A stretch of DNA of 64,000 bases from Escherichia phage Pollock. Positions 2,251 to 20,761 of this stretch are shown one piece after another. The stretch is taken from sequence record NC_027381.1; one strand, 5' to 3'. The number at the start of each line of letters is the position of its first letter. Position 1 is the stretch's first letter. The notes below the pieces were generated by a model. It searched no databases, was not told where the DNA came from, and saw nothing but the letters and a program-made list of their open reading frames with translations. Both the position numbers and the translations under genes were made by a program.

Positions 2251-2426
2251 GTATCTTTATTGTAGTTTTATTTTTCTTTCTTCTTCTCCCTTCTTTTAGA
2301 AGATTAGTATTTAAAGCACTTCGTGCTCTTCTCAGAGTATTTGGATTTGTTTTATTTATTCCAGTAATTATATGTACTGTTATTTATGCATCAATAAAAG
2401 AAGCAAATCATAAAAGAAGATATTAA
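2247..2426 (+). CDS. Small hydrophobic protein, 59 aa (hand-called, below ORF-track cutoff)
   Basis: ATG overlapping the upstream stop (ATGA); product largely hydrophobic (IFIVVLFFFLLLP, FGFVLFIPVIICTVIY). Confidence 0.3.
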   Translation: MSIFIVVLFFFLLLPSFRRLVFKALRALLRVFGFVLFIPVIICTVIYASIKEANHKRRY

Positions 2427-3852: not shown

Positions 3853-3869
3853 TTCATTTAGAGGTACTT

Positions 3870-4373: not shown

Positions 4374-4380
4374 AATATTT

Positions 4381-5500: not shown

Positions 5501-5502
5501 TT

Positions 5503-5926: not shown

Positions 5927-6135
5927 ATAAACAATTTATTCTTATATTGGATTCAATTAGGGATTGGGCAAAATCAGAATTTTCTTGTAAGGGTGGACTG
6001 TTAACTATACGCGATACATATATAAATGAACATTTATGTGGGTATTTATGTACCTCATGCCCTATTGTTCAAGTAAGAAGTAAACAACTTTATCCCGACC
6101 AAATCATTCAAACTTCCTCTCAACTAATTAAGTGA
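5923..6135 (+). CDS. Small Cys-rich protein, paralog family member
   Basis: MNKQFILILDSI N-terminus; CGYLCTSCP cluster; 4-nt overlap with the RNAP catalytic subunit start. Confidence 0.5.
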   Translation: MNKQFILILDSIRDWAKSEFSCKGGLLTIRDTYINEHLCGYLCTSCPIVQVRSKQLYPDQIIQTSSQLIK

Positions 6136-7370
6136 GACTCAATATGCAACAGTTTACAGCTTTCCAATATATCAAATTAGATATTGCTAACTCTTTTGGT
6201 TTAGATAAAGAACTGTTTGATGACCGTATCAAATGGTTTGAAGAAAACAAAAATAATTTAGCTAATTTGGTAAATGATGCAGATGAACCTGCTCAATTCT
6301 ACGCAGGTATGTTGGCATACCAAGATGTACTGGAAGGTAAACCAATTGGTTATTTAGTAGGTATGGATGCTACTGCATCTGGATTGCAGTGTATGGCTGC
6401 ATTAACTGGCTGTAAGACTACCGCTGAAACAGTAAATCTTATTGACCCTAATTGTCGTAAAGATGCTTATACCGATGGCTATAAAGTCATGGGAGAACTA
6501 CTTAATGGCAAGATTGATAAGATTGACCGTAAGGATTTGAAGGGAGCTATTATGACTCACTTCTATGGTTCTCAAGCAAATCCTAGAAGTGTATTTGGTG
6601 AAAATACTATAGAACTACAAAAGTTCTATGAAACTGTTCAAACCATTGCTCCCGGTGCAAATATGCTACGAGATGATTTAATCAATCTCTGGCAACCAAA
6701 AGCACTTCAACATTTATGGGAATTACCAGATGGCTTTACTGCTGTCGTTAAAGTAATGACCATGAAAGAAGAAAGCTTTGAAGTAAATGAATTAAATAGT
6801 TCCTTTACTCATCGTTATTGGGTTAATGAGGGTCAGGATTTTGGTTTATCACTTGCTGCTAATGTTGTTCACTCTGTAGATGGGATGGTAGTACGTGAGA
6901 TGAATCGTCGTGCTAACTACGATGAAACCAAAATACAGCGTGTATATGAGCTTCTGACTGGTTCAAACAATACAGGTATTGTGGACTATACAGTAGATGA
7001 TAAACAGCTTAAGAGAGCTATTGAGCTTGCTGAAAGACATCGTTTTGTTTCTACTGTGATGATTGAGTTCATTAACCATGAGAATGTACATATGATTCCT
7101 TTATGGATTAAGAACCAACTCATCGAAATTATTGAGAAGATGTTGGCTCATAAACCATATGCATTAATTGCAATTCATGATTGCTTTAAATGCCATCCTC
7201 TGTATATGAATAACGTGCGTCAGAACTACATTGATATCTTTGCTCAGATTGCAGATAGCACAATGCTTCAAGCAATTGCATCTCAAATCTCTGGTAAACG
7301 TATTCCAGTAACTAAACTGTCTAATGACCTTTCAACATACATTCGTAAATCCAACTACATGCTTAGTTAA
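6132..7370 (+). CDS. Phage RNA polymerase II catalytic subunit (T7-like single-subunit RNAP palm and fingers)
   Basis: Motif A-like GMDATASGLQC (T7 DGSCSGIQH), motif B-like RKDLKGAIMTHFYGS (T7 KRSVMTLAYGS), NVVHSVDGMVVRE (T7 NFVHSQDGSHLRK), motif C-like IAIHDCF (T7 LIHDSF). Confidence 0.85.
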   Translation: MRLNMQQFTAFQYIKLDIANSFGLDKELFDDRIKWFEENKNNLANLVNDADEPAQFYAGMLAYQDVLEGKPIGYLVGMDATASGLQCMAALTGCKTTAETVNLIDPNCRKDAYTDGYKVMGELLNGKIDKIDRKDLKGAIMTHFYGSQANPRSVFGENTIELQKFYETVQTIAPGANMLRDDLINLWQPKALQHLWELPDGFTAVVKVMTMKEESFEVNELNSSFTHRYWVNEGQDFGLSLAANVVHSVDGMVVREMNRRANYDETKIQRVYELLTGSNNTGIVDYTVDDKQLKRAIELAERHRFVSTVMIEFINHENVHMIPLWIKNQLIEIIEKMLAHKPYALIAIHDCFKCHPLYMNNVRQNYIDIFAQIADSTMLQAIASQISGKRIPVTKLSNDLSTYIRKSNYMLS

Positions 7371-7379
7371 GGAACTTCT

Positions 7380-7760
7380 ATGTCCATTTTCACTAATGTA
7401 ACTATTACCATTGACCCATTAGGTCATTACGTATCTATACCTCGTGACCGTATCCGTGATTCTTTAGGATACATTCCTCAAATTGTGGAACGTGGAGTAC
7501 GTCAAGCCAAAGATGAAAAAGATGCTGGTTTCTGGATTTGGACAATTTATCAGTATGGTAATCCTCTAAATCCACCTGAAACCAAATTGAAATTTAAAGA
7601 TGGTATTCTGACCTATCCAAAAGAAGAACCAAAATATCCAATAGCTGTTTATCACCTTAATAATGTTGCCGGATTAGATATCCGGTTTTGGCAATATGAA
7701 CATGCTATGACTGTATATACAGTTAATGGTAAAGCAATTTTATTCGGGAGAATGGATTAA
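7380..7760 (+). CDS. Hypothetical protein, 126 aa
   Basis: ORF only; no recognisable motif. Confidence 0.45.
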   Translation: MSIFTNVTITIDPLGHYVSIPRDRIRDSLGYIPQIVERGVRQAKDEKDAGFWIWTIYQYGNPLNPPETKLKFKDGILTYPKEEPKYPIAVYHLNNVAGLDIRFWQYEHAMTVYTVNGKAILFGRMD

Positions 7761-8101
7761 TGATTAAAGTAGGTAATATGGTCAGAATGGTCTTTACTAA
7801 AGACCCAGAACAACATACATCCAATGTAATAATCAAAGGGTTATACATGGATAAAGCATGGGTAATGTATGAACAGTCAGGTAAAGATGAAATTATTGAT
7901 TTAGCTGACGTAAGCTTTGGCAACCCTATTCCAGAAGAACCTGCAAATCATTCTTTTGTAGCCAGAGACTATAGTGGTAATTGGCTATATTGGGACCATA
8001 AAAAAGGTTACTGGTATGAATGCAATGACCCAACACAACACGAAGAACAAGAAGTCTCTTTACCGATTAATCAAAGCAAGCCAACTCAACCCATTTACTA
8101 A
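7760..8101 (+). CDS. Hypothetical protein, 113 aa
   Basis: ORF with ATGA overlap to the upstream gene. Confidence 0.45.
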   Translation: MIKVGNMVRMVFTKDPEQHTSNVIIKGLYMDKAWVMYEQSGKDEIIDLADVSFGNPIPEEPANHSFVARDYSGNWLYWDHKKGYWYECNDPTQHEEQEVSLPINQSKPTQPIY

Positions 8102-8224
8102 AATCTGGTTAAATGGGCGTCATTATGACGTCCATAATGTCTTTGATAAAGGGGAATATATTCAAGCTTACTTATGGACAGGCTGGGTATATTCCCCCTG
8201 CTTATTTAATAAAGAGGATTATAT

Positions 8225-8476
8225 ATGGCATTTAGTAAATTATGGAAAGCTATCCTAGTATTCACTTTTTTGTTAATTGGTAGTGCTTATAGTAAGGAAC
8301 ACACATTAAATCCTATATCTGAAGAAATGGATGTTCAAAGAATCCATGATGATGAAGCAGGCGTTACTTGCTGGATTTTATATGTTCCTAATACATCTAG
8401 ATATCAAATGCCTGACCATTACAGTATGAGTTGTTTACCTAATACTGTAATCAAACCAGAAGCAATTAAAAAATAA
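8225..8476 (+). CDS. Small secreted protein, 83 aa
   Basis: N-terminal signal-peptide-like stretch AILVFTFLLIGSAYS. Confidence 0.4.
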   Translation: MAFSKLWKAILVFTFLLIGSAYSKEHTLNPISEEMDVQRIHDDEAGVTCWILYVPNTSRYQMPDHYSMSCLPNTVIKPEAIKK

Positions 8477-8502
8477 ATAATTAAAACTTATAACTTCATA
8501 CT

Positions 8503-8532
8503 AAGCCTCCTTTTATGGAGGCTTTTAGTTTT
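8503..8532 (+). terminator. Rho-independent terminator
   Basis: aagcctcc-ttttat-ggaggctt stem-loop followed by a T-rich run. Confidence 0.65.
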
Positions 8533-8579
8533 ATACAAATGCTTCTTATACAGGAGCATCTTTATAAAACTATGTAGGA

Positions 8580-9035
8580 TTGGATATGAAAGTTAAACTG
8601 AAAGTACTTCCATTTAATAACACCAATATGAGCTTACCTAAACCAGCAACAGATGGTTCTGCTGGTATTGATTTACGAGCCAATACAGTTATGCCATTCG
8701 AACTTAAACCGGGAGAAACTACTCTGGTAAATACTGGTTTAGCTATCCATCTGGATGATGTTCACTATGCAGGTATGATTTTACCTCGTTCTGGGTTAGG
8801 GCATAAACATGGTATTGTGCTTGGAAATCTTACAGGTCTCATTGATAGTGATTATCAAGGGGAACTGATGGTAAGCCTCTGGAATCGCTCTACAAAGCCT
8901 TTTACTATTAATCCAGGTGACCGTATTGCTCAGTTAGTTATTGTGCCTGTAATGCAGCCTGAATTTGTTATAGTAGACTCTTTTGAAGCTACTGAAAGAG
9001 GCGAAGGTGGTTTCAACTCTACTGGAGTTAAGTGA
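8580..9035 (+). CDS. dut: dUTP pyrophosphatase (dUTPase)
   Basis: Conserved trimeric dUTPase motifs: [33 protein letters not shown], and C-terminal glycine-rich motif. Confidence 0.85.
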
Positions 9036-9208
9036 TGACTGAACCAATGAGTAAGTTTGAGCTAGAAAGACATATCCATAATCTTAAGGAATATGATTCC
9101 AAGATTGCTGGTCATGAATCTGAAGTAGTTCGTCTACAAGAAGAACGTCGAGAGTACATTAATCGACACAATCTTAACAAGATTGCAGAGAAGGTATTTC
9201 CTGCTTAA
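9035..9208 (+). CDS. Small hypothetical protein, 57 aa (hand-called)
   Basis: ATG overlapping the dUTPase stop; charged helical sequence. Confidence 0.3.
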   Translation: MTEPMSKFELERHIHNLKEYDSKIAGHESEVVRLQEERREYINRHNLNKIAEKVFPA

Positions 9209-9234
9209 GCGCCTACGGCGCTCTCTTTGGTTAT
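9209..9234 (+). promoter_or_regulatory. Second-class hairpin motif (TAC loop plus TCTCTTTGG)
   Basis: gcgcc-TAC-ggcgc followed by tctctttggttat; similar elements at 10011 and 18161; function unknown. Confidence 0.3.
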
Positions 9235-9263
9235 AGCTACCTTCGGGTAGCTTTTTATTTTTT
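9235..9263 (+). terminator. Rho-independent terminator
   Basis: agctacc-ttcg-ggtagct stem-loop followed by TTTTTATTTTTT. Confidence 0.75.
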
Positions 9264-9582
9264 GGGGAAAATGATGGCTAAAGAACCAATCTCCAAACTA
9301 TGTATTCCTATTGGAGATAAATATGAAATTACCTCTAATGGGTATTCATATGTATTAGTTGAGAAAAGAACTGTTCAATCAGGAGTTAAAGCTGGGACTA
9401 CTGCTTCCAGTAATGTTGGTTATTTTCAGACTTTAGGTTCTCTTGCTAAACAGTTAATTAATAAAGAAGTATGTGAAACTAACATTACTTCTTTACAACA
9501 ATTAAATGAGCGTATCGAAGAACTAGGTATTGGTATAGCTCAGTTACTTGAACAACTTGTTAAACAAAATGAAGGTAAATGA
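9262..9582 (+). CDS. Hypothetical protein (likely true start ATG at 9271)
   Basis: ORF after a terminator; C-terminal coiled-coil-like sequence. Confidence 0.4.
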   Translation: MGKMMAKEPISKLCIPIGDKYEITSNGYSYVLVEKRTVQSGVKAGTTASSNVGYFQTLGSLAKQLINKEVCETNITSLQQLNERIEELGIGIAQLLEQLVKQNEGK

Positions 9583-10006
9583 AATGGCACTAACCAATGA
9601 ACAAAAGCAAGCACTTGAAATTGTAGCTGACTTGATTAAACAACAAGAGAATCCTCTAGTTGTTTCGGCTGGATTGGCTTTGCTGTTTAAATTGGAAATT
9701 TCCAATATGTCTCCTCGTGAAGTATTGGAACAGATTGGTAAAGAACTTAAAGCTGAACATGACCATGATTCAGGATGTACTTGTCTTGAACGTCATCATT
9801 TCTTATTGAACGTTCTGAACAATCTGGAAAAACAGAAGTTCAATGATGAAGTTACTTATAAATTGTTGAGTACTGCTGAAGATGCTTGGGACACGTTTGA
9901 AGAACGTTATGAACGTATTCCTACTGTTACCTATACACCTTCGCAATTCACCATTCAAACTGGTGTACCGGGTATTTATTTTATTCACCCTGCTGTACAG
10001 AAGTAA
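9548..10006 (+). CDS. Hypothetical protein, about 140 to 152 aa
   Basis: ORF; the start may be the downstream in-frame Met (MALTNEQ). Confidence 0.45.
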   Translation: MNNLLNKMKVNEMALTNEQKQALEIVADLIKQQENPLVVSAGLALLFKLEISNMSPREVLEQIGKELKAEHDHDSGCTCLERHHFLLNVLNNLEKQKFNDEVTYKLLSTAEDAWDTFEERYERIPTVTYTPSQFTIQTGVPGIYFIHPAVQK

Positions 10007-10010
10007 TTCT

Positions 10011-10030
10011 CGCACTTCGTGCGTCTCTTA
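10011..10030 (+). promoter_or_regulatory. Second-class hairpin motif (TTC loop plus TCTCTT)
   Basis: cgcac-TTC-gtgcg followed by tctcttagg, then a terminator-like hairpin. Confidence 0.3.
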
Positions 10031-10053
10031 GGAGTCATTTTGGCTCCTTTTTA
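10031..10053 (+). terminator. Rho-independent terminator
   Basis: ggagtca-ttt-tggctcc stem-loop followed by TTTTT. Confidence 0.6.
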
Positions 10054-10078
10054 TTAACATCTGAAAGAGGAATTTATT

Positions 10079-10528
10079 ATGGGTTTATTTGGTTTTGGTA
10101 AGAAAAAAGTTAGTCAGAAAGTAGAACAAATGCGAGCTACCGCTGGAAAGATGGAAAATAAAGATATCGTTGAAGCAGGTATCGCTGTAATGGTTGGTGT
10201 AGCATTTGCAGATAAATCTTGCTCTGATGAAGAAATTGAAATTCTGGAAAATATCATTGAATCTGATGACACCTTTGCAGAATGGCGTTCTGAAACTCAG
10301 GCAATGACTAATAAATGGATAAGCAAATTCCAGAAATTCCATCGTGGTGCAATGATGGATTTGGAAAAAGAATTTAACGACCTGAAAGGAGACCCTGCTG
10401 GTCAGAAACGTGCTTTGCTGTGTGGTATTGCCGTAGCAGAAGATGATGAAGGCATGGGTGCAGAAGAAAAAGCTTTTCTTGAAAAAGTTGCAGGTTGGGC
10501 AGGCATCCGTTTGGATACTTTACTGTAA
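10079..10528 (+). CDS. TerB-like protein (tellurite-resistance TerB domain)
   Basis: Two-repeat architecture comparable to TerB: AGIAVMVGVAFADKSCSDEEIEILENII and ALLCGIAVAEDDEGMGAEEKAFLEKVA, length about 150 aa. Confidence 0.55.
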   Translation: MGLFGFGKKKVSQKVEQMRATAGKMENKDIVEAGIAVMVGVAFADKSCSDEEIEILENIIESDDTFAEWRSETQAMTNKWISKFQKFHRGAMMDLEKEFNDLKGDPAGQKRALLCGIAVAEDDEGMGAEEKAFLEKVAGWAGIRLDTLL

Positions 10529-10690
10529 ATGGCACTGAAATTACGAGGAATAATAGTAGCCGTATTATTGTTCCTTGTAGTTGCTATCGACTTCACTAGT
10601 AAGGTGATGTCGATACTAGCAGACGGTGTATTAGTTGCTGCTGTAATAGCAATAATGTGGCCTGTATTTAAAAGGACTAACAATGAGTAA
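10529..10690 (+). CDS. Small membrane protein, 53 aa (hand-called)
   Basis: Start overlaps the TerB-like stop; hydrophobic IIVAVLLFLVVAI and VLVAAVIAIMW segments. Confidence 0.3.
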   Translation: MALKLRGIIVAVLLFLVVAIDFTSKVMSILADGVLVAAVIAIMWPVFKRTNNE

Positions 10691-11015
10691 ACCAAAAATT
10701 GAAATTGAAAAGATTGATGCTTTACGTAATGCATTTAATGCAATGTACGTATCTCATCAAGAAATATCTGTAGGTGATATTGTTATTCTACACCCTTCAG
10801 TTCCGGGAATTTTTAAAGTTCCTACTGAAGAACGTCCGGGTATCGTTACTAAATTTCTACCAAAACCAATGTATGCGTATGAAATGGCTGACGATACACG
10901 TCCAAGCCATCCTTCTTCAGCAATACAATATGATTGTGTAATCAATATCATTAATGACGATGGTGAAATTGTTCCATTCTTAATGGATTCTCGTCGCCTC
11001 CTTAAAGTTAATTAA
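10683..11015 (+). CDS. Hypothetical protein, 110 aa
   Basis: ORF; terminator follows at 11021..11050. Confidence 0.45.
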   Translation: MSKPKIEIEKIDALRNAFNAMYVSHQEISVGDIVILHPSVPGIFKVPTEERPGIVTKFLPKPMYAYEMADDTRPSHPSSAIQYDCVINIINDDGEIVPFLMDSRRLLKVN

Positions 11016-11020
11016 TCTAT

Positions 11021-11050
11021 AAGCCTACTTAGTAGTAGGCTTTCATTTTT
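11021..11050 (+). terminator. Rho-independent terminator
   Basis: aagcctact-tagt-agtaggctt stem-loop followed by a T-rich run. Confidence 0.7.
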
Positions 11051-11069
11051 CATCTGTAAAGGTAATCCT

Positions 11070-11153
11070 ATGCGTCCTACAGCTATTAAAAAAGCTATTG
11101 AAAGAGCTTTTGCAGCAGGACTTGTTCCTTTTATTAAAGGTAGTCCGGGTATT
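11070..11153 (+). CDS. MoxR-like AAA+ ATPase, exon 1 (N4 gp24-like)
   Basis: Encodes MRPTAIKKAIERAFAAGLVPFIKGSPGI, ending in the first half of a Walker A motif (GSPGI) right before an in-frame TGA. Confidence 0.65.
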
Positions 11154-11543
11154 TGATTTTACAAGATACCCTAAGCAGTGATGCTTAGTAAAAAATCCCT
11201 TGAATTGCTGGAAACCCTTAAAGCTGAATTAACTACTGCGAGTTGAAAAACAAAGCCAATGTTTAAAAATAATTCAGATATGTAGGCAATCAGCAGCCAA
11301 GCTCCTAAGGTTTAGGATATTAAGCTATGGAGAAGGTTCAACGACTAGGCGTAAGCCGTACACTCAAGTGAGTGGAAGTGGGGGACTCTTTACAAACTTA
11401 CCACCATGGAATACCTTTTGTATTTGCAAAGAAAGGTCTATGTCGTAAATGTAGTAAAGATGAAGATATAGTCTCGTCTTATGTGAAAGCATAAGCTGTT
11501 TAATAAACAGAGGGTAGCTTAACGAACTACCCTGAAGATTACG
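11154..11543 (+). ncRNA. Group I intron, ORF-less (intron 1 of the MoxR-like ATPase gene)
   Basis: Contains td-type core elements: P-like AATTGCTGGAAA, Q-like AATCAGCAGCC, R-like GTTCAACGACTAG, S-like AAGATATAGTCT; 5-prime exon ends in U and intron ends in G; splicing restores Walker A GSPGIGKS. Confidence 0.7.
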
Positions 11544-11786
11544 GGTAAATCTGCAATTATTCGTCAAATTGCAAAAGAAGCTAAATTATTGGTTATTGAC
11601 CTTCGTTTAGGTCAATGTGACCCAACTGATTTATTGGGATTTCCAAATATTGAGAATGGACGGTCTGTATATCATCCACCAAAAGATATTCCAATTATTG
11701 GGGATGAAATTCCTAAAGGATATAACGGTTGGCTGTTATTCCTTGATGAAATGAATACAGCACCTAAAGCTGTTCAGGCTGCTGCT
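11544..11786 (+). CDS. MoxR-like AAA+ ATPase, exon 2
   Basis: Encodes GKSAIIRQIAKEAKLLVIDLRL...GWLLFLDEMNTAPKAVQAAA: Walker A completion plus Walker B LLFLDEMN, matching MoxR LLADEINRAPPKTQSALLE. Confidence 0.7.
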
Positions 11787-12630
11787 TAAATTAATAGGCA
11801 TTTATGGGGGAAACCTCATATCTAAAGCTACTTAAAACGGGGAACTCTTAGTAGTGTATATACACTAAAGACAATCCGTTGCTAAATAGGAATTAAGATG
11901 CAAGAAGTTTGGAAAGCTATTCCCGGATATGAGAAAGAATATGAAATTTCTACTCATGGACGGATTAAGAGTTTAGATAGAGTCGTTCCTTGTAAACATG
12001 GCACTCGCCTTGTTAAAGGAAAATTATTAAAAACCTATATTAATCGAAAAGGGTATTTAATTGTTACTTTATCTAAAGAAAATAAACTGAAAACATATAC
12101 CGTACATCAGTTAGTTGCTCTTACATTTATTCCAAATTTCATTAAAGGCACAGAAATTAATCATAAAGACGGTAATAAATCCAATCCAGTATTAGATAAT
12201 TTAGAAATTAGCAACCCTAGCCATAACCAGTTACATGCTATAGCTACAGGTCTTAAAGCAAAGGTTGGTAAGAGTAAATACCACAATGTAACTTACATTA
12301 AAAACCCACGGGCTAAGAAAAAGTGGGCTGCAAGTATAAGTTATAATGGGGAAAAATCTTTTGGATGGAAAACATTTATGACAGAAGAAGAAGCTGCAAG
12401 ATATGTAGATAAACTTCTTGATGAAATAGGTGATACTTCCCGTTTAAGAAATTTCTAATTAATTCCTTAAATGCCCAACGACTAGTCGAAAGACGTAGGC
12501 TCAAGTGAGTCGAAAAAGTAGCTCCCCAAACAAGTAAAGTTGTGGGGATTGATATAGTCTGCTCTATATAGAAATATATAGCTGGATTAATTATCCGGGT
12601 AATGATTAACGACCATTACTGAACATAAGG
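11787..12630 (+). mobile_element. Group I intron carrying an HNH homing endonuclease (intron 2 of the MoxR-like ATPase gene)
   Basis: R-like CAACGACTAG and S-like GATATAGTCT elements downstream of the HNH ORF; exon ends in U, intron ends in G; splicing yields AVQAAAYKLLDRMVGQT, matching MoxR QSALLEAMQERQVTIGGQT. Confidence 0.7.
11898..12458 (+). CDS. Intron-encoded HNH homing endonuclease
   Basis: N-terminal WKAIPGYEKEYEISTHGRIKS (NUMOD4-like), HNH core HQLVALTF...NHKDGNKSNPVLDNLE...HNQLH, C-terminal AP2-like WAASISYNGEKSFGWKTFMTEEEAARYVD. Confidence 0.8.
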   Translation: MQEVWKAIPGYEKEYEISTHGRIKSLDRVVPCKHGTRLVKGKLLKTYINRKGYLIVTLSKENKLKTYTVHQLVALTFIPNFIKGTEINHKDGNKSNPVLDNLEISNPSHNQLHAIATGLKAKVGKSKYHNVTYIKNPRAKKKWAASISYNGEKSFGWKTFMTEEEAARYVDKLLDEIGDTSRLRNF

Positions 12631-13320
12631 TATAAACTGTTGGACCGTATGGTAGGACAAACCAAATTACATCCTAGTGTTTATATTGCTGCTGCTGGTA
12701 ACAAAGATACAGATGGAGCAATTACTACTACTATGAGTAGTGCAACTCTATCTCGTATTGTTAGTATGGAACTAGAAGTTAACTTTAATGATTGGGCTGT
12801 ATGGGCATTAGCCAATAACATTGACCATCGCATCATGGGATATCTTCAGTTCAAACCAGAAGCATTCCATAAATTTGACCCTAAAAATCTTAAAGAACCT
12901 TTTCCATGCCCACGTACATGGGAGTTCATTAACCGTGCTATTAATGGATTAGATGTATCTTTAAATTCTGATTTGGGTTTATTGTCTGGAATTATTGGTA
13001 ATGGCACTGCTCGTGAATTTATTGAGTATTGTGCTATCTATGGTGAGATTGCTTCCTTTGAAGAAATTATGTCTAATCCAGAAAGCATTGTCATCAAAGA
13101 CAGACCAGACATTAAGTATGCATATGCTGGTTTTGTAGCTTCTCGCATTACCCCTGAAAATGCATCTCAATTAATGAAATTCATTAATCGACTGCCCGTT
13201 GAATTTCAGATTGTAACTTTGAGTAATGCTTTTAAAGCTAAACCTCTCATTTCTCAAGTTCCAGAAATAATGGAATGGATTACTCGTTATGCCAACGAGT
13301 CAGGTGAAGGGATGCTCTAA
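12631..13320 (+). CDS. MoxR-like AAA+ ATPase, exon 3
   Basis: Encodes YKLLDRMVGQTKLHPSVYIAAAGNKDTDGA..., the sensor and C-terminal region of an AAA_5/MoxR ATPase; an in-frame stop lies a few codons upstream of 12631. Confidence 0.7.
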   Translation, partial: YKLLDRMVGQTKLHPSVYIAAAGNKDTDGAITTTMSSATLSRIVSMELEVNFNDWAVWALANNIDHRIMGYLQFKPEAFHKFDPKNLKEPFPCPRTWEFINRAINGLDVSLNSDLGLLSGIIGNGTAREFIEYCAIYGEIASFEEIMSNPESIVIKDRPDIKYAYAGFVASRITPENASQLMKFINRLPVEFQIVTLSNAFKAKPLISQVPEIMEWITRYANESGEGML

Positions 13321-14434
13321 TAAGGAGTTTCCTATGGATAAGAATAAAGCACTGGATTTAGCCAAAGTAGATTTATTTGCCCGTAAACAAAATACTTTTA
13401 TTTGTTCCATCTTTTGCTCACTTCAGCTTAAGTGGGACGATACCATCCCTACAGCTTGTACTGATGGTTTGAGTATCTTGATAAATCCAGATTATTTTAT
13501 GGATTTACCACGTCCAATGCGAGTGACACTTCTTGCTCATGAGACGTGGCATGTTGCTTTAAAACATGTCTTAAGGGTTACGGGAAGAAATCCAAAATTA
13601 TGGAATTATGCTTGTGATTATTACATCAATAATATGCTTGATGATGCTAAGTATGTTATTGGTACTGGTTGGCTATTAGACCATCAGTATGATGGCATGA
13701 GTGCTCCAGAAATCTATAACAAGCTACAAAAATCCAGTAAAAACCTGCCTCAAAATTTATTAGGTATGGATATTAAACCCTGTCCTTCTTCATCAGAAGA
13801 AGCTATTGAATCACAAATTGATTCTATGCTTATTCGTGGCTCTATTGCTGCAAAGCAAGGAGGACAAGCTGGAAGTATCCCCGGAGATATCCAAGCATAT
13901 ATTGATGAGCTTCTGAATCCTAAATTACCTTGGAACGATATTCTCAGAAATTTTATTAATGAGATGACTCGTAATGACTACACTTGGGCTAAACCTAATA
14001 AACGGTATTTGCCTGATATTTATTTACCTTCTCTAAATTCTGAAGGTCTAGAACATATCATTTTTTATACTGATATTTCTGGTTCAGTATCTGATACACA
14101 ATTTGGTGTGTATATCAGTGAAATTCATGCAATTAAAACAACATTGAATCCAAAACGAATTACAGTATGTACGTTCGATACAAAGATTCATGAAGTGTAT
14201 GAATTAGAAGAAGGAGATGATATTAGTAAGTGTACGTTTACAGGTAGAGGAGGTACATCTCTTACTTGTGTGTATGAACATGCTAAGAAAGAGAAACCAG
14301 AACTCATCGTAATATTTTCTGATTTGGATTGTGCTCCAATGAAGGAACAACCTACACCTAATGTCATTTGGGTATGTTTGGACAATCCAACAAAAACAGT
14401 TGATTTTGGTCAACTGATTCATGTGAAAAGTTAA
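13289..14434 (+). CDS. VWA-domain protein with HExxH motif (MoxR partner; N4 gp25-like)
   Basis: HExxH-like LLAHETWHVALKH in the N-terminal half; MIDAS-like FYTDISGSVSD in the C-terminal half; sits directly downstream of the MoxR-like ATPase. Confidence 0.65.
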   Translation: MPTSQVKGCSNKEFPMDKNKALDLAKVDLFARKQNTFICSIFCSLQLKWDDTIPTACTDGLSILINPDYFMDLPRPMRVTLLAHETWHVALKHVLRVTGRNPKLWNYACDYYINNMLDDAKYVIGTGWLLDHQYDGMSAPEIYNKLQKSSKNLPQNLLGMDIKPCPSSSEEAIESQIDSMLIRGSIAAKQGGQAGSIPGDIQAYIDELLNPKLPWNDILRNFINEMTRNDYTWAKPNKRYLPDIYLPSLNSEGLEHIIFYTDISGSVSDTQFGVYISEIHAIKTTLNPKRITVCTFDTKIHEVYELEEGDDISKCTFTGRGGTSLTCVYEHAKKEKPELIVIFSDLDCAPMKEQPTPNVIWVCLDNPTKTVDFGQLIHVKS

Positions 14435-14477
14435 TCTGCATGAGTAGGTAAATTTTAATTTACCTTTCAGATGTTTT

Positions 14478-14506
14478 TGCCCTCTTTGTGAGGGCATCTT
14501 TTTTTG
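14478..14506 (+). terminator. Rho-independent terminator
   Basis: tgccctc-tttgtg-agggca stem-loop followed by TCTTTTTTT. Confidence 0.75.
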
Positions 14507-14516
14507 GAGTTGTCTC

Positions 14517-14921
14517 ATGTTTAATATTCATAAAGCTGTACGTGATGCAGCTAATTCTATGTACCCAAAGAAAATTAAAATGGAAGTACCAAGTAATCTT
14601 CCTTTATCTAATAACCGTTGTCATTACAACGCTGTACAAGCAGTTAAAAATAATTTAGCTGCTGGAATATTAGAAGTAGTTATTATTTATAAAAATGACT
14701 GTACAGTTCATTATGTAAATGTATTACCTAATGGTACTTGTGTAGATTTCACATTAGGAGTCATGTGTATAAATGATGATTATCGTTTTATACGTCATGT
14801 TTCTCCTAATGAATATGACACCATTAATAAAACTTTAAAAAATGCTAAGGATAAGTTATATGCTTCAACCCCTTGGTACATACAGAAATTAATAAAACTT
14901 TCTGGTAAAGATTGGTGTTAA
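14517..14921 (+). CDS. Hypothetical protein, 134 aa
   Basis: ORF; Cys-containing; no recognisable family. Confidence 0.45.
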   Translation: MFNIHKAVRDAANSMYPKKIKMEVPSNLPLSNNRCHYNAVQAVKNNLAAGILEVVIIYKNDCTVHYVNVLPNGTCVDFTLGVMCINDDYRFIRHVSPNEYDTINKTLKNAKDKLYASTPWYIQKLIKLSGKDWC

Positions 14922-15736
14922 TAATGAAAGAACAAGAACAACTTAGAAAAGATATTTCTCGTATCTTTTCAATCTTTAAAGCCAGTGAATGTAAATTACG
15001 TCCTCATTTCATTCTTACTGGAGAAAGTGGTACTGGAAAAACTTTCTTAATTAAGTCTTTAACTGAACAGCATAAAATGGATTATATTGAAATTAATGCT
15101 GCTCAGCTAACTAAAGAAGGTTTATCGGGAAATAGCTTAAGTAAGGCACTTGCTCCTTTACGCCAAGCTAATGGTAATCCTGTCATCTGTTTTGTAGATG
15201 AATTCGATAAATTATTTATCGCAGGGAATAACAATAGTGAATTAGCTCATGAATCTACCAATGGAGTTCAAAACGAATTCCTTAAGATTCTTGAATCTGA
15301 ATGTACTTCTGTATTTGGTGATTATGGTAAATATGTAGATGTTCCTGTAAATAATGTTCTATTTGTATTTGCAGGAGCATTCAATGGTGAACCAAATATC
15401 ACTTTAGATAAGCTACGTACTTTTGGTGTTAAAACTGAATTTTTAGGTCGTGTGGGTTTAGTTTATAACACTGTCAAAATTAGCTTAGAAAGTCTTATTC
15501 AAGTCTTAAAAGATTCAGACACTCTCACTATGTATCTGGATTTATTTCCAGAAGTTAAACGAGAGAAAGCCATCAAAGATATCTCAGCATTTATCAAAGA
15601 TAATTATGAGATGAATACTTTGGGTATTCGTATGGTTAATACGTTAATTACTCAATATTTCATTCAAGATGGAAAACTCACCCGAGATGAAGTTAAAACC
15701 AGTACTTTCCAAAATAAACTTAAATTTGGTGAGTAG
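14912..15736 (+). CDS. AAA+ ATPase, ClpX/HslU-like nucleotide-binding domain
   Basis: Walker A GESGTGKT; TKEGLSGNSL resembles ClpX TEAGYVGEDV; Walker B ICFVDEFDK resembles ClpX IDEIDK. Confidence 0.55.
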   Translation: MVLIMKEQEQLRKDISRIFSIFKASECKLRPHFILTGESGTGKTFLIKSLTEQHKMDYIEINAAQLTKEGLSGNSLSKALAPLRQANGNPVICFVDEFDKLFIAGNNNSELAHESTNGVQNEFLKILESECTSVFGDYGKYVDVPVNNVLFVFAGAFNGEPNITLDKLRTFGVKTEFLGRVGLVYNTVKISLESLIQVLKDSDTLTMYLDLFPEVKREKAIKDISAFIKDNYEMNTLGIRMVNTLITQYFIQDGKLTRDEVKTSTFQNKLKFGE

Positions 15737-15871
15737 TACGTCTAAATCTCCTATTGCATGGGATATCTTTCGTATCCCTTCAAAACATGTATGTCGAACC
15801 AAGAAACGCACTGTAGCCACTATTGCTCGTAATAAGGGTTATCGTGTGATTCCTGTGTTCGGAAGAAGTTA

Positions 15872-15888
15872 AAGCCCCTTCGGGGCTT
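15872..15888 (+). terminator. Hairpin, possible terminator or RNA processing site
   Basis: aagcccc-ttcg-gggctt perfect stem-loop but no clear T-run. Confidence 0.35.
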
Positions 15889-15966
15889 GCCTCGGAAAGA
15901 AAGAGGAATTAATCCTCTTCAAATTAAACTCTATTTTTAATCCCAATCTGAAAAGGTAAATGAAAA

Positions 15967-17409
15967 ATGGCTAAGACTCTTGAAAATGAAGAAAAGAAAG
16001 TTCACGTTGCTGACGTTGTTAAACACGGTGAGAAACTGATTCTCCCTGAAAACATGTCTATGTCTGATGCAATTGATTTGCTGAAGCGTCGTCAGAAGTA
16101 CGAAGAAGAAGAAGTAATTGTTCGTCGTACTTATAACGTATTCCCATGGGATGGTGCTCATGCACTGATGCTGGCTCTGACTGAACGTTATGGTTGGGCT
16201 GCTGCTGAAGCAACTCCGGGATTCTTTGGTTCTAACCCTCCGCAAATGCTGGATGTTCAGGTTGGTTATGGTCAAACCAAGAAAGTACCTTGGGGTCGTT
16301 TCTCTTTGCCTCAAGTAGATGGATTTGTTCAGTGCTCTGCACAGAAGAAAGATGGTCGTATTAGCTTTGAACTAGTTGGTAAAGTTCTGCGTAAAGACGA
16401 AAAGACCATCGAACTGCTATTTGATACTGTAGAAAAAACTCTGCGTACTAATTCCATTTATATGGGTCAGGCTATCAAAATTCGTTTCCGTGATAACGAT
16501 GGTGAACTGTTGGAAATGCCTGAACCAGAATTTATGGATTTACGTGGTATCAGCCGTAATTCTCTGGTTTATTCTGATGATGTTCAAAATCTGATTGAAA
16601 CTAATCTGTTTACTCCGATTGAGCGTGTAGCAGATTGCATCATCAATGAAATTCCAGTTAAACGTGGTGTACTGCTTGGTGGACCATATGGTACTGGTAA
16701 AACTATGGCTGCAACTGTTGCTGCTTCTCTGGCTACCAGCGTTGGTGTTACTTACGTATATGTACCTCGTTGTGATGAACTGTCTGATGCAATTCAGTTT
16801 GCTAAGCAGTATAGCGATAAAGCGTGTGTAATCTTCTGCGAAGATATTGACCGTGCTGTATCTGGTGAACGTAGTGTTAAGATGGATGACATCCTGAATA
16901 TTCTGGATGGTATTGATACTAAAACGTCTCGCATCATCACTGTTCTGACTACTAACCATCTGGAAAATATTAACCCAGCAATGCTGCGTCCGGGTCGTCT
17001 GGATGCAATCATTGATGTTACTCCGCCAGATGCTAAAGCAGTTGAAAAACTGGTACGTCTGTATGGTCGTGATACCATTGCTGCTGATGCAGACCTGACT
17101 CTGGTTGGTGAAGCTCTGGCAGGTACTATCCCTGCGGTAATTGCAGAAGTTGTTAAACGTGCTAAGTTGCACCAACTTCAGTATCAAGAGCCGGGTACTA
17201 TGATTAAAGAAATCAGTGGTCAAGCTCTGCTGGATTCTGCTCTGACTATTCAAGCACAGCGTAAGCTGCTGGAAGAACAGTCTAAACCAAAAGTTAAAGA
17301 ACCTACCTTTAACGAAACTATTGCTTCTGCCGTTGCTCCTGCAATTGAAGCTGCGGTAAGCAAAGTTACTAATCAGGTATCTGAACTGCACGAGCGCATC
17401 TGCGACTGA
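15967..17409 (+). CDS. AAA-family ATPase, 480 aa, codon usage suggests high expression
   Basis: Walker A GGPYGTGKT; Walker B VIFCEDIDR; second region of homology NPAMLRPGRLD typical of classic AAA proteins; strong preference for CTG, CGT and GGT codons unlike most neighbours. Confidence 0.65.
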   Translation: MAKTLENEEKKVHVADVVKHGEKLILPENMSMSDAIDLLKRRQKYEEEEVIVRRTYNVFPWDGAHALMLALTERYGWAAAEATPGFFGSNPPQMLDVQVGYGQTKKVPWGRFSLPQVDGFVQCSAQKKDGRISFELVGKVLRKDEKTIELLFDTVEKTLRTNSIYMGQAIKIRFRDNDGELLEMPEPEFMDLRGISRNSLVYSDDVQNLIETNLFTPIERVADCIINEIPVKRGVLLGGPYGTGKTMAATVAASLATSVGVTYVYVPRCDELSDAIQFAKQYSDKACVIFCEDIDRAVSGERSVKMDDILNILDGIDTKTSRIITVLTTNHLENINPAMLRPGRLDAIIDVTPPDAKAVEKLVRLYGRDTIAADADLTLVGEALAGTIPAVIAEVVKRAKLHQLQYQEPGTMIKEISGQALLDSALTIQAQRKLLEEQSKPKVKEPTFNETIASAVAPAIEAAVSKVTNQVSELHERICD

Positions 17410-17435
17410 ATCATATTCGTTAAGTGATTCTCTAA

Positions 17436-17460
17436 TAGCCCTTCAATGAGGGGCTATTTT
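17436..17460 (+). terminator. Rho-independent terminator
   Basis: tagccc-ttcaatga-ggggcta stem-loop followed by TTTT. Confidence 0.6.
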
Positions 17461-17479
17461 AGTTATCACTGGAGGAATC

Positions 17480-18160
17480 ATGAAAAATCTTTATCAGAAG
17501 ATTAATGGAAGCCAGTACAACCGAATCTTCGTTGTGGGAGATTTACATGGTTGTTTCGATGCTCTTCAAAAAGAAATGTGGGCTGTTCAATTTAATACTG
17601 AAACAGACCTTATTATATCTGTAGGTGATTTAATTGACCGTGGTACTCAAAACGTAGAGTGTTTACGTCTATTAAAAGAACCTTGGTTTAAAGCTGTTTT
17701 AGGTAATCATGAAGTAATGGCATTGAATGCCTTATCTTCTGAACTTGACAGTGAAGAATCCAACTTAGCCTATTATAACTGGTTTAGTAATGGGGGTAGT
17801 TGGATTATGGATATTACGGAAGAACAGAAACCAGAAGTATTAGAGTTATTTGGTCTGGTAGCTGAATTACCGGGAATCATCGAAATCTCTGTAGATGATA
17901 AAACTATTGTTGTTTGTCATGCAGACTACCCTTCAAATCAGTATGAATTCAATAAACCTATTGATGAAAATACCCTTATTTGGGGAAGAGGACGTATTGT
18001 TCTAAACCAAAATAAAAAAGGTACTGTTATTGAAGGTGCTGATGAATTCTATTTTGGACATACCCCAGTTAAAGAACCTACTAAATTCTATAATCAAAAC
18101 TATATTGATACAGGAGCAGTATTTCCTGTTGGTCAATTAAGTATGATTCAAATCAAATAA
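17480..18160 (+). CDS. Ser/Thr protein phosphatase (calcineurin-like metallophosphoesterase)
   Basis: Motifs GDLHG, GDLIDRG, GNHE and a later histidine motif, as in lambda-type phosphatases. Confidence 0.8.
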   Translation: MKNLYQKINGSQYNRIFVVGDLHGCFDALQKEMWAVQFNTETDLIISVGDLIDRGTQNVECLRLLKEPWFKAVLGNHEVMALNALSSELDSEESNLAYYNWFSNGGSWIMDITEEQKPEVLELFGLVAELPGIIEISVDDKTIVVCHADYPSNQYEFNKPIDENTLIWGRGRIVLNQNKKGTVIEGADEFYFGHTPVKEPTKFYNQNYIDTGAVFPVGQLSMIQIK

Positions 18161-18187
18161 CTGCCTACGGCAGTTTCTTTGGTTAAT
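18161..18187 (+). promoter_or_regulatory. Second-class hairpin motif (TAC loop plus TTTCTTTGG)
   Basis: ctgcc-TAC-ggcag followed by tttctttggttaat, upstream of ORF 18203. Confidence 0.3.
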
Positions 18188-18202
18188 TTCACATCTGTAT
18201 AG

Positions 18203-18517
18203 GTGCTCAATATGAATATTCAAAAATTTGGGGAGATTACATTTATTGGTAAATCTAATTTACCTGCAATGACTAACTTTGTTTTTGAAGTAGAAAACAA
18301 AGCAGAATCTGAAATGATTGAAAATCATCAAGTTAAAACATTGCTTATGTTAACTGCTGTACGAAATCATTTCGATAGTGTAATCAGTATGGTTCAAAAC
18401 AAGCTTGATAAAGCTTCTATAAGTGATTTTGAGGACTTTTCTGTACCAGTAGGTAAAAGTGATAAGTCTCCTAAAGAAATCGTATTAGAGAGCCTCTCAC
18501 GAATTATGAATAAGTAG
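18203..18517 (+). CDS. Hypothetical protein, 104 aa
   Basis: ORF only. Confidence 0.4.
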   Translation: MLNMNIQKFGEITFIGKSNLPAMTNFVFEVENKAESEMIENHQVKTLLMLTAVRNHFDSVISMVQNKLDKASISDFEDFSVPVGKSDKSPKEIVLESLSRIMNK

Positions 18518-18545
18518 TATTGAGCCTCTATAGTTAAGGGGGTTT

Positions 18546-18809
18546 ATGTCAGATTCTTCAAACAATACATATCGTGGAAACATGATGTGTATTAAGTTTT
18601 CCTATGACTTTAAGATAATCCTCCCTATTGAAGATGGTAAAGCCTTACTAGAATTATTGAGTAAAGCTGAACTCTTCAAAGAAGAGTATCAAAAAGAACC
18701 TCATATTGAACCAATGGATAAAGACATTGATATTAGGTTCTTAGCAAGAACTACATATGAACGTCTTAAACTTAACTTTTTAAGGTCTGATAATAATGAG
18801 CCTGACTAG
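18546..18809 (+). CDS. Hypothetical protein, 87 aa
   Basis: ORF only. Confidence 0.4.
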   Translation: MSDSSNNTYRGNMMCIKFSYDFKIILPIEDGKALLELLSKAELFKEEYQKEPHIEPMDKDIDIRFLARTTYERLKLNFLRSDNNEPD

Positions 18810-20040
18810 TTGCCAAGAGCAAGCAGCTAAACAGTTCTTATCGTTTCTTTGTACTTCAGAGAAACATATGGTTATTTCAGGTCCTCCCGGAGTAGGCAAA
18901 ACATTCATGCTTAATCACATGATTGAGATGTTGCCTAGTAGCAGGCGTATTACAACTATTATGGGAGCAGAACCTCTTCATAATATTGCTATAACAGCTA
19001 CTACTAATAAAGCTGCTGAAGTACTTCAGGAAAGATTCCCTGATAGACAAGTAACAACAATTCATTCAAAGCTAGGGCTTACAGTAAGAGATGATTACCG
19101 TACAGGTAAAACATTTACTGATAAGAGTAAAGGCTTTACACCTCTATCCGACACTCTCGTCTTAATGGACGAATCTTCAATGGCGGATACTCAATTACTG
19201 AAATTGATTGATGAAGGTACTTCTAAAAACTGTAAGATAGTTTTTATTGGAGACCATTGTCAGTTAGCTCCAGTGTCAGAAACAATGAGTCCAGTCTTCA
19301 ACTCGGGCTACATTACTTCATATCTAAATACCCAAATGCGTACTAGTAATAGTCCTGCATTAACTTTGCTGAATGAACAATTGCGTCAAACAGTAGAAAC
19401 GGGTGTCTTCAGACCAATTACTCCTGTTCCCGGTACTATCGAATTCGTTGATGACGATACGATGAGACAATTGATGAATGCTAATTTCATCTCACAGGAA
19501 ACTCCCGGTCACAAAATCCTTGCATACACAAACAATGGGGTTCAAGAATACAACACGTATATTCGAACCAAAAAGAATCTACCTCCGACATTAATAGTTG
19601 GTGATACTGTTGTATCAAACAATAGTATTGAGACTGCTGGTTCTCGAACAATTATTGAAAAAGCATACAATGTATATCATGTATCTGAAATCCAATATGA
19701 TGATGTAATTCCTTATTACTTAGTTGATATTGGAGTTGGTGGTTTAGTAAAACAACCAGTTAACTTTTCACAGCTACAAACTCATATCAGAGAAGAAGCC
19801 AGTGAAAAGAATTGGGTAGAGTATTTCCGTTTAAAGAATGAATTTGCTGACCTACGGTTTGCATATGCATCAACGGTTCATAAATCTCAAGGTTCAACCT
19901 TTGATACTGTATATATAGATTTAACTGATTTATGTATCTGTAAAGACATGAATCAATTAGCCCGTATGCTTTATGTAGCTGTAAGTCGTGCTACTACTCG
20001 TGTTGTGTTCTATGGTAATCCTCCTCATTTTATGAGGTGA
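18796..20040 (+). CDS. SF1 DNA helicase (Dda/RecD-like)
   Basis: Walker A GPPGVGKT, Walker B LVLMDESSM, C-terminal ASTVHKSQGSTFDTVYID and YVAVSRATTRV motifs typical of Dda/RecD-type helicases. Confidence 0.8.
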   Translation: MSLTSCQEQAAKQFLSFLCTSEKHMVISGPPGVGKTFMLNHMIEMLPSSRRITTIMGAEPLHNIAITATTNKAAEVLQERFPDRQVTTIHSKLGLTVRDDYRTGKTFTDKSKGFTPLSDTLVLMDESSMADTQLLKLIDEGTSKNCKIVFIGDHCQLAPVSETMSPVFNSGYITSYLNTQMRTSNSPALTLLNEQLRQTVETGVFRPITPVPGTIEFVDDDTMRQLMNANFISQETPGHKILAYTNNGVQEYNTYIRTKKNLPPTLIVGDTVVSNNSIETAGSRTIIEKAYNVYHVSEIQYDDVIPYYLVDIGVGGLVKQPVNFSQLQTHIREEASEKNWVEYFRLKNEFADLRFAYASTVHKSQGSTFDTVYIDLTDLCICKDMNQLARMLYVAVSRATTRVVFYGNPPHFMR

Positions 20041-20516
20041 TTATGTCTTCATATACAGAACCAACAAAATTACAGAAAGAGATTCTTATAGATTGGTTAT
20101 TAAACTCAATTACAGATAGTTTCTGTACTTTTGTTTATAACAGGGAAAAACAACTCTGTATTGATAATGATGCTCCTAATGGATTTATGTTTAATAACAT
20201 GGTCTTTAGGGAATCATCTAATATGGTTTTTTACTGTAAACCAGAATTAGTTGAAACAGCTAAAGAAGTGTGGAAACTCAAACAAAAAGTTAAAAGAGAT
20301 TGGTTATATCTCGAAAACTATTTTAGAAAAGTTTTTGCACGAATAACTCACTACGGTCAGTTGTATTGTTATGTTCCTTCATTCATGCATAAAAACTTAG
20401 ATAAAGTATTCTCTACTACTGTTTTAGGGGAGAAGACTATTATCGAAGGATTAATGCCTGATGAATCTATGCATAAGTTAATCTCTTTCTATGTAATGAC
20501 ACGATTGGTTATTTAA
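20037..20516 (+). CDS. Hypothetical protein, 159 aa
   Basis: ORF with start overlapping the helicase stop. Confidence 0.45.
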   Translation: MIMSSYTEPTKLQKEILIDWLLNSITDSFCTFVYNREKQLCIDNDAPNGFMFNNMVFRESSNMVFYCKPELVETAKEVWKLKQKVKRDWLYLENYFRKVFARITHYGQLYCYVPSFMHKNLDKVFSTTVLGEKTIIEGLMPDESMHKLISFYVMTRLVI

Positions 20517-20761
20517 TGGATATCGCATTTGTAGTTTCCAAATTGATTGTTACAGAGTACACGTTGCTTAGACAATGGTGGCCTGAACAATTACGTCAAT
20601 CCAGATATGTAGATAATGGAATGACTAGAACTTACTTCTTAGATACACATCCATCCCCTGAACTTCAAGAACTCATAGAAGAGTTACATAAGTTTGGGAG
20701 AGAGTATCGACTTATAGATTTAAGAGGAGTGGAAATAGATAATGCGTCATATAATCTTTGA
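20516..20761 (+). CDS. Hypothetical protein, 81 aa
   Basis: ORF only. Confidence 0.4.
   Translation: MDIAFVVSKLIVTEYTLLRQWWPEQLRQSRYVDNGMTRTYFLDTHPSPELQELIEELHKFGREYRLIDLRGVEIDNASYNL

Follow-up and report, generated by a model that had tools for sequence, protein, structure and literature searches.

Escherichia phage Pollock (NC_027381.1; the window is the whole stretch of 64,000 nucleotides that was analysed) carries, between 9.2 and 18.2 kb, short GC-rich hairpins closed by a three-base loop and followed by a pyrimidine-rich box, and the question raised by this locus is whether they work as DNA or as RNA, and for which polymerase. A first reading made from the sequence alone had noticed three of them, at 9209, 10011 and 18161, and had offered three possibilities: middle-class promoters, sites of early-transcription termination or pausing, or RNA processing sites. 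By database comparison the genome is that of an N4-like podophage (Schitoviridae), close to Ithacavirus. Taking into account the evidence described below, we lean towards reading these elements, here called class 2, as promoters which fold into a DNA hairpin on the template strand and are used by the heterodimeric RNAPII of the phage, that is, as middle promoters like those of the Pseudomonas phage LUZ7.

Structure, conservation and covariation of the hairpins

The window was scanned systematically for perfect 5-bp stems with 3-nt loops. Class 2 was formed by four hairpins (9209, 10011, 15874, and 18161; sites A to D), all of them on the + strand, intergenic, and 0-4 nt from the upstream stop codon (Table 1). 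Each one has a Watson-Crick stem of 5-7 bp, a T-N-C loop, seven mostly pyrimidine bases, and GG; once the flanking A:T pairs are counted, the stem reaches 6-7 bp at three of the four sites. The three hairpins and boxes of the sequence-only reading were found exactly in the sequence and position that it had given, and site C is the member that it overlooked. Its description of the loop as TAC or TTC is correct at the window sites, the rule being T-N-C when the relatives, some of which have TCC, are included. It was also right that two of the hairpins are directly followed by a canonical terminator; these are sites A and B. The fold of the class 2 hairpins as template-strand DNA was calculated at -5.9 to -6.9 kcal/mol.

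Regarding the gene context, site A begins on the final base of the TAA stop of the open reading frame (ORF) 9032-9208 and follows a small ORF located after the dUTPase gene. Site B lies 4 nt past the TAA stop of ORF 9548-10006, upstream of a TerB-like gene; site C comes after the TAA stop of ORF 15669-15872, upstream of the FtsH/AAA-like gene; and site D overlaps the TAA stop of the gene for the NinI-like phosphatase and stands at the head of the block with helicase, DNA polymerase, and primase. Class 2 sites were found only past the RNAPII genes and ahead of the replication and nucleotide-metabolism genes.

The frequency expected by chance was estimated with 200 dinucleotide-preserving shuffles of the 64-kb window. 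Hairpins with a C-TNC-G loop numbered 11 on the + strand and 0 on the - strand, against a mean of 0.1 per strand in the shuffles. Matches to class 2 (four observed) and to the early hairpins, here class 1, occurred in none of the 200 trials. The nine hairpins of both classes are all located within the ORF-free 8.1% of the + strand gene block.

A covariance model (R1) was built from 15 distinct orthologous copies of class 2. It recovered exactly sites A-D in the 64 kb, with 29.6-40.1 bits, the next matches being the early hairpins with at most 17 bits. The model also recovered the orthologous sites in relatives, Pylas included. At E ≤1 it gave no match in N4, EC1-UPM, Ea9-2, Axy12, Pa2, Ka3, or Ab2712, nor in the Rhizobium, Ruegeria, and Vibrio phages examined, and because it is silent in these more distant phages we consider the class 2 consensus specific to Humphriesvirinae and Triduovirus. 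A degenerate pattern scan of viral contigs with a full-stem filter left two SP-058 sites among the matches listed and does not address the wider distribution.

The nearest relatives are the Salmonella Ithacavirus phages UTK0001, FSL SP-058, and SP-076, Shigella phage B2, Salmonella phage TR2 (Triduovirus), and the Klebsiella Pylasvirus phages, with a DNA identity of ~77-85% over the alignable parts. Each of the four class 2 sites occupies an orthologous position in different genera. All relatives examined have sites A, C, and D, the orthologues of site A being those of UTK0001, SP-058, SP-076, TR2, KpCHEMY26, and Pylas. Among the relatives, site B is shared only by KpCHEMY26 and Pylas, the Klebsiella phages, where its stem is of 7 bp, and at the same position the Ithacavirus phages have an unrelated hairpin. 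Compensatory substitutions have changed the stems across the relatives, but there is no variation in the GG, in the C:G closing pair, or at loop positions 1 and 3. In the alignment of the 15 copies the invariant columns are C9, T10, C12, G13, T18, T23, and G25, with G26 nearly so. Every one of 16 distinct copies has C-T-N-C-G on the coding strand, equivalent on the template to a G-N-A loop with C:G as its closing pair. At the centre of the loop (TAC, TTC, or, in relatives, TCC) the coding strand has A, T, or C and the template A, G, or T.

The covariation of the stems was equally clear. Of the stem cells in the alignment, 94% are paired and 20 are changed on both sides; none of 500 shuffles equalled this, and slid controls gave 25-45% pairing. 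The five core pairs are G:C, C:G, A:T, or T:A in all 15 copies and never G-U, which is what is expected when DNA or both strands fold and is unusual for stems selected as RNA.

The class 2 hairpins are also distinct from the ordinary terminators of this genome, a separate + strand set located at 2029, 8503, 9235, 10030, 11021, 14478, 17434, 28829, and 31829, which have UUCG-type or longer loops, G-T pairs, and T-runs. With intrinsic terminators (rho-independent, T7 class I) class 2 shares a GC-rich stem-loop past a stop codon followed by a pyrimidine-rich tract, and it differs from them in its fixed triloop rule, its strict Watson-Crick stems, its invariant GG, and the lack of a T-run at site C. 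The tails of sites A, B, and D have 4-5 U in 8 nt, interrupted by C, and that of site C, UUGCCUCGG, is without such a run. The tail of site C (UUGCCUCGGAAAG; its orthologues read TTGCTTTGG) is not U-rich, and yet the site is kept as a member of the class. The terminator behind site A is maintained in relatives with compensatory changes.

In public records the class 2 elements are unannotated, and the GenBank record of Pylas marks only the canonical terminator behind site A; the papers on the closest relatives SP-058 and TR2 make no mention of hairpins, promoters, or terminators. At the Rfam gathering score the class 2 elements match no family, the sole match in the window being a group I intron at 11143-11495.

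Table 1. Position of the hairpins, stem-loops, and genes considered in this work; bits are scores of the covariance model.
Feature	Position	Strand	Description
Class 2 site A	9208..9230	+	GCGCC-TAC-GGCGC; stem 9209-9213/9217-9221, 6 bp with A9208:T9222; loop TAC 9214-9216; spacer TCTCTTT 9222-9228; GG 9229-9230; 38.8 bits
Class 2 site B	10011..10032	+	CGCAC-TTC-GTGCG; stem 10011-10015/10019-10023, 5 bp; loop TTC; spacer TCTCTTA; GG 10031-10032; 29.6 bits, weakest member
Class 2 site C	15872..15895	+	GCCCC-TTC-GGGGC; stem 15874-15878/15882-15886, 7 bp with AA/TT; loop TTC; spacer TTGCCTC; GG 15894-15895; 35.9 bits
Class 2 site D	18159..18182	+	CTGCC-TAC-GGCAG; stem 18161-18165/18169-18173, 7 bp with AA/TT; loop TAC; spacer TTTCTTT; GG 18181-18182; 40.1 bits, top-scoring
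Possible divergent fifth member, membership uncertain	2315..2337	+	AGCAC-TTC-GTGCT then CTTCTCA G; inside ORF 2247-2426
Class 1 hairpins	61-73, 682-694, 1501-1513, 1553-1565, 3828-3840	+	TTC loop; stem then N-N-N-T-G-G
Canonical intrinsic terminator directly behind site A	9235..9265	+	stem-loop 9235-9252; AGCTAC-CTTCGG-GTAGCT then TTTTTATTTTTT (T-run)
Terminator-like stem-loop overlapping the GG of site B	10030..10056	+	stem-loop 10030-10048; AGGAGTC-ATT-TTGGCTCCT then TTTTTATT
Second stem-loop a few nt past the GG of site C	15902..15920 (approximate, ±2 nt)	+	AGAGGA-ATTAA-TCCTCT; conserved
Homologue of the N4 RNAPII cofactor gp2 (single-strand-binding)	1607-2020	+	37% identity to N4 gp2
Heterodimeric T7-like RNAPII, two subunit genes	4577-5500 and 6132-7370	+	
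FtsH/AAA-like gene	15967-17409	+	
NinI-like phosphatase gene	17480-18160	+	
Virion RNA polymerase gene	from 31855	-	3537 aa

Comparison with the early hairpins and with the promoters of N4 and LUZ7

The class 1 hairpins are located at the left end; those at 1501 and 1553, separated by 52 nt, are a tandem pair that precedes the gp2 homologue, and another copy precedes the RNAPII region. In 20 of 20 distinct copies of the clade the loop is TTC and the GG lies 11 nt from the loop centre. It is noted that LUZ7 has a comparable tandem pair ahead of Drc. The same hairpin scan recovered the promoters P1, P2, and P3 of N4 at 90, 559, and 4548, where the hairpin is followed by T-T-(A/T)-T and GG, with the G at 11 nt from the loop centre. 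Because their geometry and location match those of N4 P1-P3, the class 1 hairpins are, judging from the sequence, the N4-type early promoters of the virion polymerase in this phage.

Class 2 departs from class 1 in three respects: the GG is at +14/+15 from the loop centre instead of +11, the spacer being 3 nt longer; the central base of the loop is free, whereas in class 1 it is always T on the coding strand and A on the template; and the location is at 9-18 kb, past the RNAPII genes, instead of the left end. The sequence-only reading had separated the two groups by the downstream box, and the difference that it perceived consists mainly of the longer spacer and the free central base. A longer stem as the cause of the longer spacer was ruled out, since P2 and P3 of N4, with 7-bp stems, still start at +11.

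For the template hairpin of N4 it has been described that the C:G closing pair and the loop's 5′ G and 3′ A are needed for supercoil-driven extrusion and for stability, by means of a sheared G:A pair (PMC4496689). For the N4 virion polymerase, position -11 must in addition be a purine and template position +1 a C, at a fixed distance (PMC4496689). Class 2 resembles N4 P1-P3 in its template hairpin, whose stem measures 5-7 bp and whose 3-nt loop reads G-N-A with C:G as closing pair, and in the pyrimidine and GG that follow, and the end of its box, CTTTGG, is similar to positions -4 to +2 of N4 (TTTTGG or TTATGG). It differs in that the GG is at 14 nt, not 11, from the loop centre, position +11 being T or C; in that the template loop of sites A and D is GTA, with a central T where a purine is required in N4; and in its location at 9.2-18.2 kb, away from the left end, the equivalents of P1-P3 being here the class 1 hairpins. 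Class 2 thus retains the structural determinants of an extrudable DNA hairpin and breaks two that are specific to the polymerase, the central template purine and the start at +11. Considering the spacer 3 nt longer and the unconstrained central base, the virion polymerase would not be the enzyme that reads class 2. The coexistence of +11 and +14 within one genome constitutes a natural experiment on how two related single-subunit polymerases distinguish nearly identical DNA hairpins.

The middle promoters of N4, which are used by RNAPII with gp2 and gp1, would share with class 2 the proposed job, the genome region, the type of polymerase, and a cofactor of the gp2 type. According to their description, they lack a hairpin, start at T, and consist of a short AT-rich stretch from -7 to +2 (PMC9163698). 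Class 2, in contrast, combines a GC-rich hairpin with a candidate start at GG, and the two are set apart here by that description of the N4 sites. Hairpins of this kind beyond the three early promoters were found neither in N4 nor in EC1-UPM.

The closest architecture is that of LUZ7, an N4-like Pseudomonas phage in which four middle promoters were mapped by ONT-cappable-seq and primer extension by Putzeys et al. 2022 (PMC9163698). In each of them a GC-rich hairpin, its stem no shorter than 6 bp and its loop of 3-4 nt, precedes a G start by ~15 bp, and the early promoters of the same phage have shorter stems (PMC9163698). In both systems the hairpins are GC-rich, have a 3-nt loop, and lie on the strand that carries the early and middle genes, past the RNAPII genes, with a G ~14-15 nt from the loop centre. 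A stem of at least 6 bp, as in LUZ7, is found at sites A (6), C (7), and D (7), and site B has 5 bp. Our scan of LUZ7 gave hairpins at 8238, 9521, 35252, 39354, and 42208, right after stop codons, whose correspondence with the mapped promoters is made through the published description only; four hairpins of that scan have a TCC loop and a G at +14 from the loop centre. The hairpin at 8238 has a strong terminator-like stem-loop directly behind it, the same arrangement as sites A and B. The differences are that there is no sequence similarity between the two sets; that the cofactor is Drc in LUZ7 and an N4 gp2 homologue in Pollock, where Drc was not found; that the Pollock elements carry a conserved T-N-K-C-Y-T-Y-G-G box with strict spacing, whereas Pa2, a phage related to LUZ7, does not keep the G at one position; and that the function was measured in LUZ7 and is only proposed in Pollock.

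TCC-loop hairpins of 6-7 bp were also seen just past the gene of the RNAPII large subunit in N4-like phages of Pseudomonas and Acinetobacter: at 8238 and 9521 in LUZ7, 21254 and 22290 in Ka3, 9545 and 12342 in Pa2, and 15573 and 16813 in Ab2712. LUZ7 and Pa2 differ here by a compensatory change (AGCGTTC/GAACGCT versus AGCGTAC/GTACGCT).

Candidate functions of class 2

Among the three functions proposed by the sequence-only reading, that of middle promoter is the one we favour, in view of the position of the sites, their loop, the distance to Y-G-G, and the architecture of LUZ7; from the same features we infer the start of RNA at these sites and the polymerase responsible. In the mechanism proposed, the hairpin would form on the template (bottom) strand upon negative supercoiling or local opening, as in the early promoters of N4. 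The template strand would read 5′-CC-R-A-R-G-M-N-A, stem, G-N-A loop, stem-3′, the C:G-closed G-N-A loop giving an unusually stable mini-hairpin, and the single-stranded stretch 3′ of the hairpin could offer a fixed start site. The GG, at 14-15 nt from the loop centre and with a coding-strand pyrimidine just before it, would then be where RNA begins. The presumed reader would be the RNAPII made by the phage, aided by the gp2-like cofactor, and not the injected virion polymerase. The units driven in this way would have their starts at 9271, 10079, 15967, and 18203; the one at 18203 is the replication module, for which site D, the top-scoring and most conserved copy, would be the promoter. In favour of a promoter it counts that the start-like motif (T23, G25, and nearly G26) is kept at a constant distance while the stems vary.

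Several observations weigh against this proposal. The link to LUZ7 is one of architecture and not of sequence, and the covariance model has no match in LUZ7. Transcripts starting at the GG of sites A and B would meet a strong hairpin with a T-run within ~35 nt, and a terminator so close downstream of the start is odd for a promoter unless RNAPII reads through it or the unit is attenuated. The four hairpins abut a stop codon, the classic position of a terminator or of a 3′ stabiliser, and three of them have a U-rich tail. N4, whose gp2 is the closest homologue studied, has AT-rich, non-hairpin middle promoters with a T start (PMC9163698), and four sites are few for ~22 kb of middle genes. Lastly, the fixed loop positions 1 and 3 with a free centre could equally reflect an RNA-binding protein that reads the triloop.

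If class 2 does consist of RNAPII promoters, what is new here is a hairpin class in the Salmonella and Klebsiella N4-like clade, and what is known is its kind, N4-like hairpin promoters, whose middle class has so far been reported only for LUZ7. Defining the middle promoters in N4-like phages has been difficult. N4 uses AT-rich sites that need gp1 and gp2. Initiation by RNAPII directed by a hairpin would then not be limited to Pseudomonas phages, and the middle operons of therapeutic Salmonella and Klebsiella phages could be annotated. The consensus (stem, G-N-A loop, 7-nt spacer, and template CC) is compact enough for direct testing in vitro.

A broader version of the promoter proposal is possible, although we hold it to be rather doubtful. 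According to it, the N4-type RNAPII and gp2 of the Salmonella and Klebsiella N4-like phages (Humphriesvirinae and Triduovirus) would read extruded template hairpins and not AT-rich promoters; a hairpin that opens by itself would replace the absent gp1; and hairpin promoters would be general in the virus family instead of a peculiarity of LUZ7. The hairpin and terminator of sites A and B would form an insulating module that halts the incoming transcripts and launches new ones, which either read through or are attenuated to RNAs of ~25-37 nt. The interest of the system rises if an N4-type gp2/RNAPII reads hairpins and if these pairs insulate or attenuate. No homologue of N4 gp1, the proposed melting factor of middle promoters, was detectable in Pollock, whether at 119-454 or elsewhere in the window, in its clade, or in the LUZ7 group, and in the five gp1-positive lineages sampled (N4, EC1-UPM, Axy12, Ea9-2, and a Rhizobium phage) the middle-region hairpins are absent in all. 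As a predictor of such hairpins the absence of gp1 was set aside, given that the association is weak and that Ruegeria phage V12 and Vibrio phage 1.097.O are without both.

That class 2 acts instead as terminators or pause sites of the single-subunit phage polymerases (RNAPII or the virion enzyme), with the canonical terminators of sites A and B as a fail-safe, seems unlikely to us. In this case a GC-rich RNA hairpin with a U/C-rich tract behind it would halt or slow the polymerase where genes end. The location immediately past stop codons and the stable folds predicted for the RNA hairpins are in line with this explanation, and a generic terminator scan listed 9208-9222 and 18159-18175, which are sites A and D, as terminator-like. 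Because class II termination signals, which are sequence-specific, are known for T7-like polymerases, an invariant tail is compatible with termination. The tail of site C is, however, conserved without being U-rich, and neither the GG at an invariant distance, nor the T-N-C rule, nor the C:G closing pair has a role in hairpin terminators. The true terminators of this genome look different, with varied loops, UUCG tetraloops, and G-U pairs, and those behind sites A and B would be redundant. The ends of the + strand block (28829 and 31829) are served by ordinary terminators and not by class 2; since a separate set exists on the same strand, class 2 is not needed for this function. Early termination in particular, one of the proposals of the sequence-only reading, is unlikely because two of the sites lie 8-11 kb past the RNAPII genes and the genome has its own ordinary terminators; at 15.9 and 18.2 kb they are too distant to end early transcription. 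A literature search for terminators of the N4 virion polymerase gave no usable description.

Less probable is that class 2 represents a second promoter, priming site, or binding site of the virion polymerase, either delayed-early, used while more DNA enters the cell, or for the priming of DNA replication by newly made polymerase. The size of the hairpin, the template G-N-A loop, and the C:G closing pair are common to virion-polymerase promoters, and the N4 virion polymerase is reportedly required for N4 DNA replication. The clade itself offers the main objection: its class 1 promoters, fixed at +11 with a TTC loop, point to a set geometry of its virion polymerase which class 2 violates. LUZ7 has early promoters with a TAC loop and a G start 13-14 nt from the hairpin centre (PMC9163698), so that both a +14 spacing and a T at the centre of the template loop fit some virion polymerases, and yet the N4 enzyme needs its -11 purine and +1 template C at a set distance (PMC4496689). 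Moreover, about four polymerase molecules are injected, and it has been argued that hairpin promoters are confined to the left end (PMC4496689).

The idea to which we assign the lowest probability is that class 2 acts in the RNA as a protein-binding or stability element, either an antitermination signal similar to nut/boxB that renders the polymerase insensitive to the terminators behind it or a 3′ stem-loop which protects the upstream messages after processing. The order of hairpin and then terminator at sites A and B, conserved across genera, recalls antitermination sites upstream of terminators, and the placing right after coding regions suits a protective element. The strand is, however, transcribed by single-subunit phage polymerases, for which we know of no RNA-based antitermination of the nut/boxB type; the loop belongs to the same family as that of class 1, which by homology to N4 is template-strand DNA; and the lack of an Rfam match, together with a downstream invariant GG that this idea leaves unexplained, and the absence of G-U pairs noted above, also speak against it. 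Antitermination of the lambda nut/boxA type, suggested by a box loosely like boxA (GCTCTTT) upstream of terminators, was demoted to a form of this RNA-level explanation, as the host RNA polymerase is not the enzyme of this strand.

Other hairpins and genome context

Two further hairpins of the promoter loop type were noticed. The one at 2315..2337 scored only 11.2 bits with the covariance model. Its orthologues (3054 in L002, 6195 in L005, and 3350 in L006) keep the hairpin, their stems having changed in a compensatory way that also changes the encoded amino acids; behind the stem come a pyrimidine run and a G at +13/+14. This hairpin may represent an internal promoter or a divergent copy of class 2. 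The second, GCTGC-TTC-GCAGC at 63541-63553 (+), is inside the - strand ORF 63452-63988, with no GG at +11 or +14, and may be due to chance or be a remnant near the right genome end.

The second stem-loop past site C has no T-run after it, and in TR2 both of its sides are changed (AGAGAA...TTCTCT). The stem-loops 28829-28846 and 31829-31848 are symmetric and score as terminators on both strands; the latter marks the junction between the rightward gene block, which covers 1 to ~31.8 kb on the + strand, and the leftward gene of the virion polymerase.

Nucleotide homology to many relatives ends shortly after site D (~18228-18244), and the segment 9000-10057, between sites A and B, could not be aligned to the Ithacavirus phages by megablast; the hairpin sites therefore coincide with boundaries of mosaic modules. 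When the NinI-like protein was used as query for related loci, SP-058 was the sole match besides its own contig. In IMG/VR the window corresponds to positions 1-64000 of contig UViG_2706796286_000001. The group I catalytic intron (Rfam RF00028; + strand, 101 bits, full-length match to the model) falls in the region of the MoxR-like ATPase gene, which is split by an intron according to the annotations of the Pylas and KpCHEMY26 records. Finally, matches to Sigma-70-like promoters, counted on both strands, were strongly depleted: there were 34 in 1-20000, where 82.5 would be expected, and 33 in 20001-40000, where the expectation is 75.2, which suggests an avoidance of host-promoter-like sequence.

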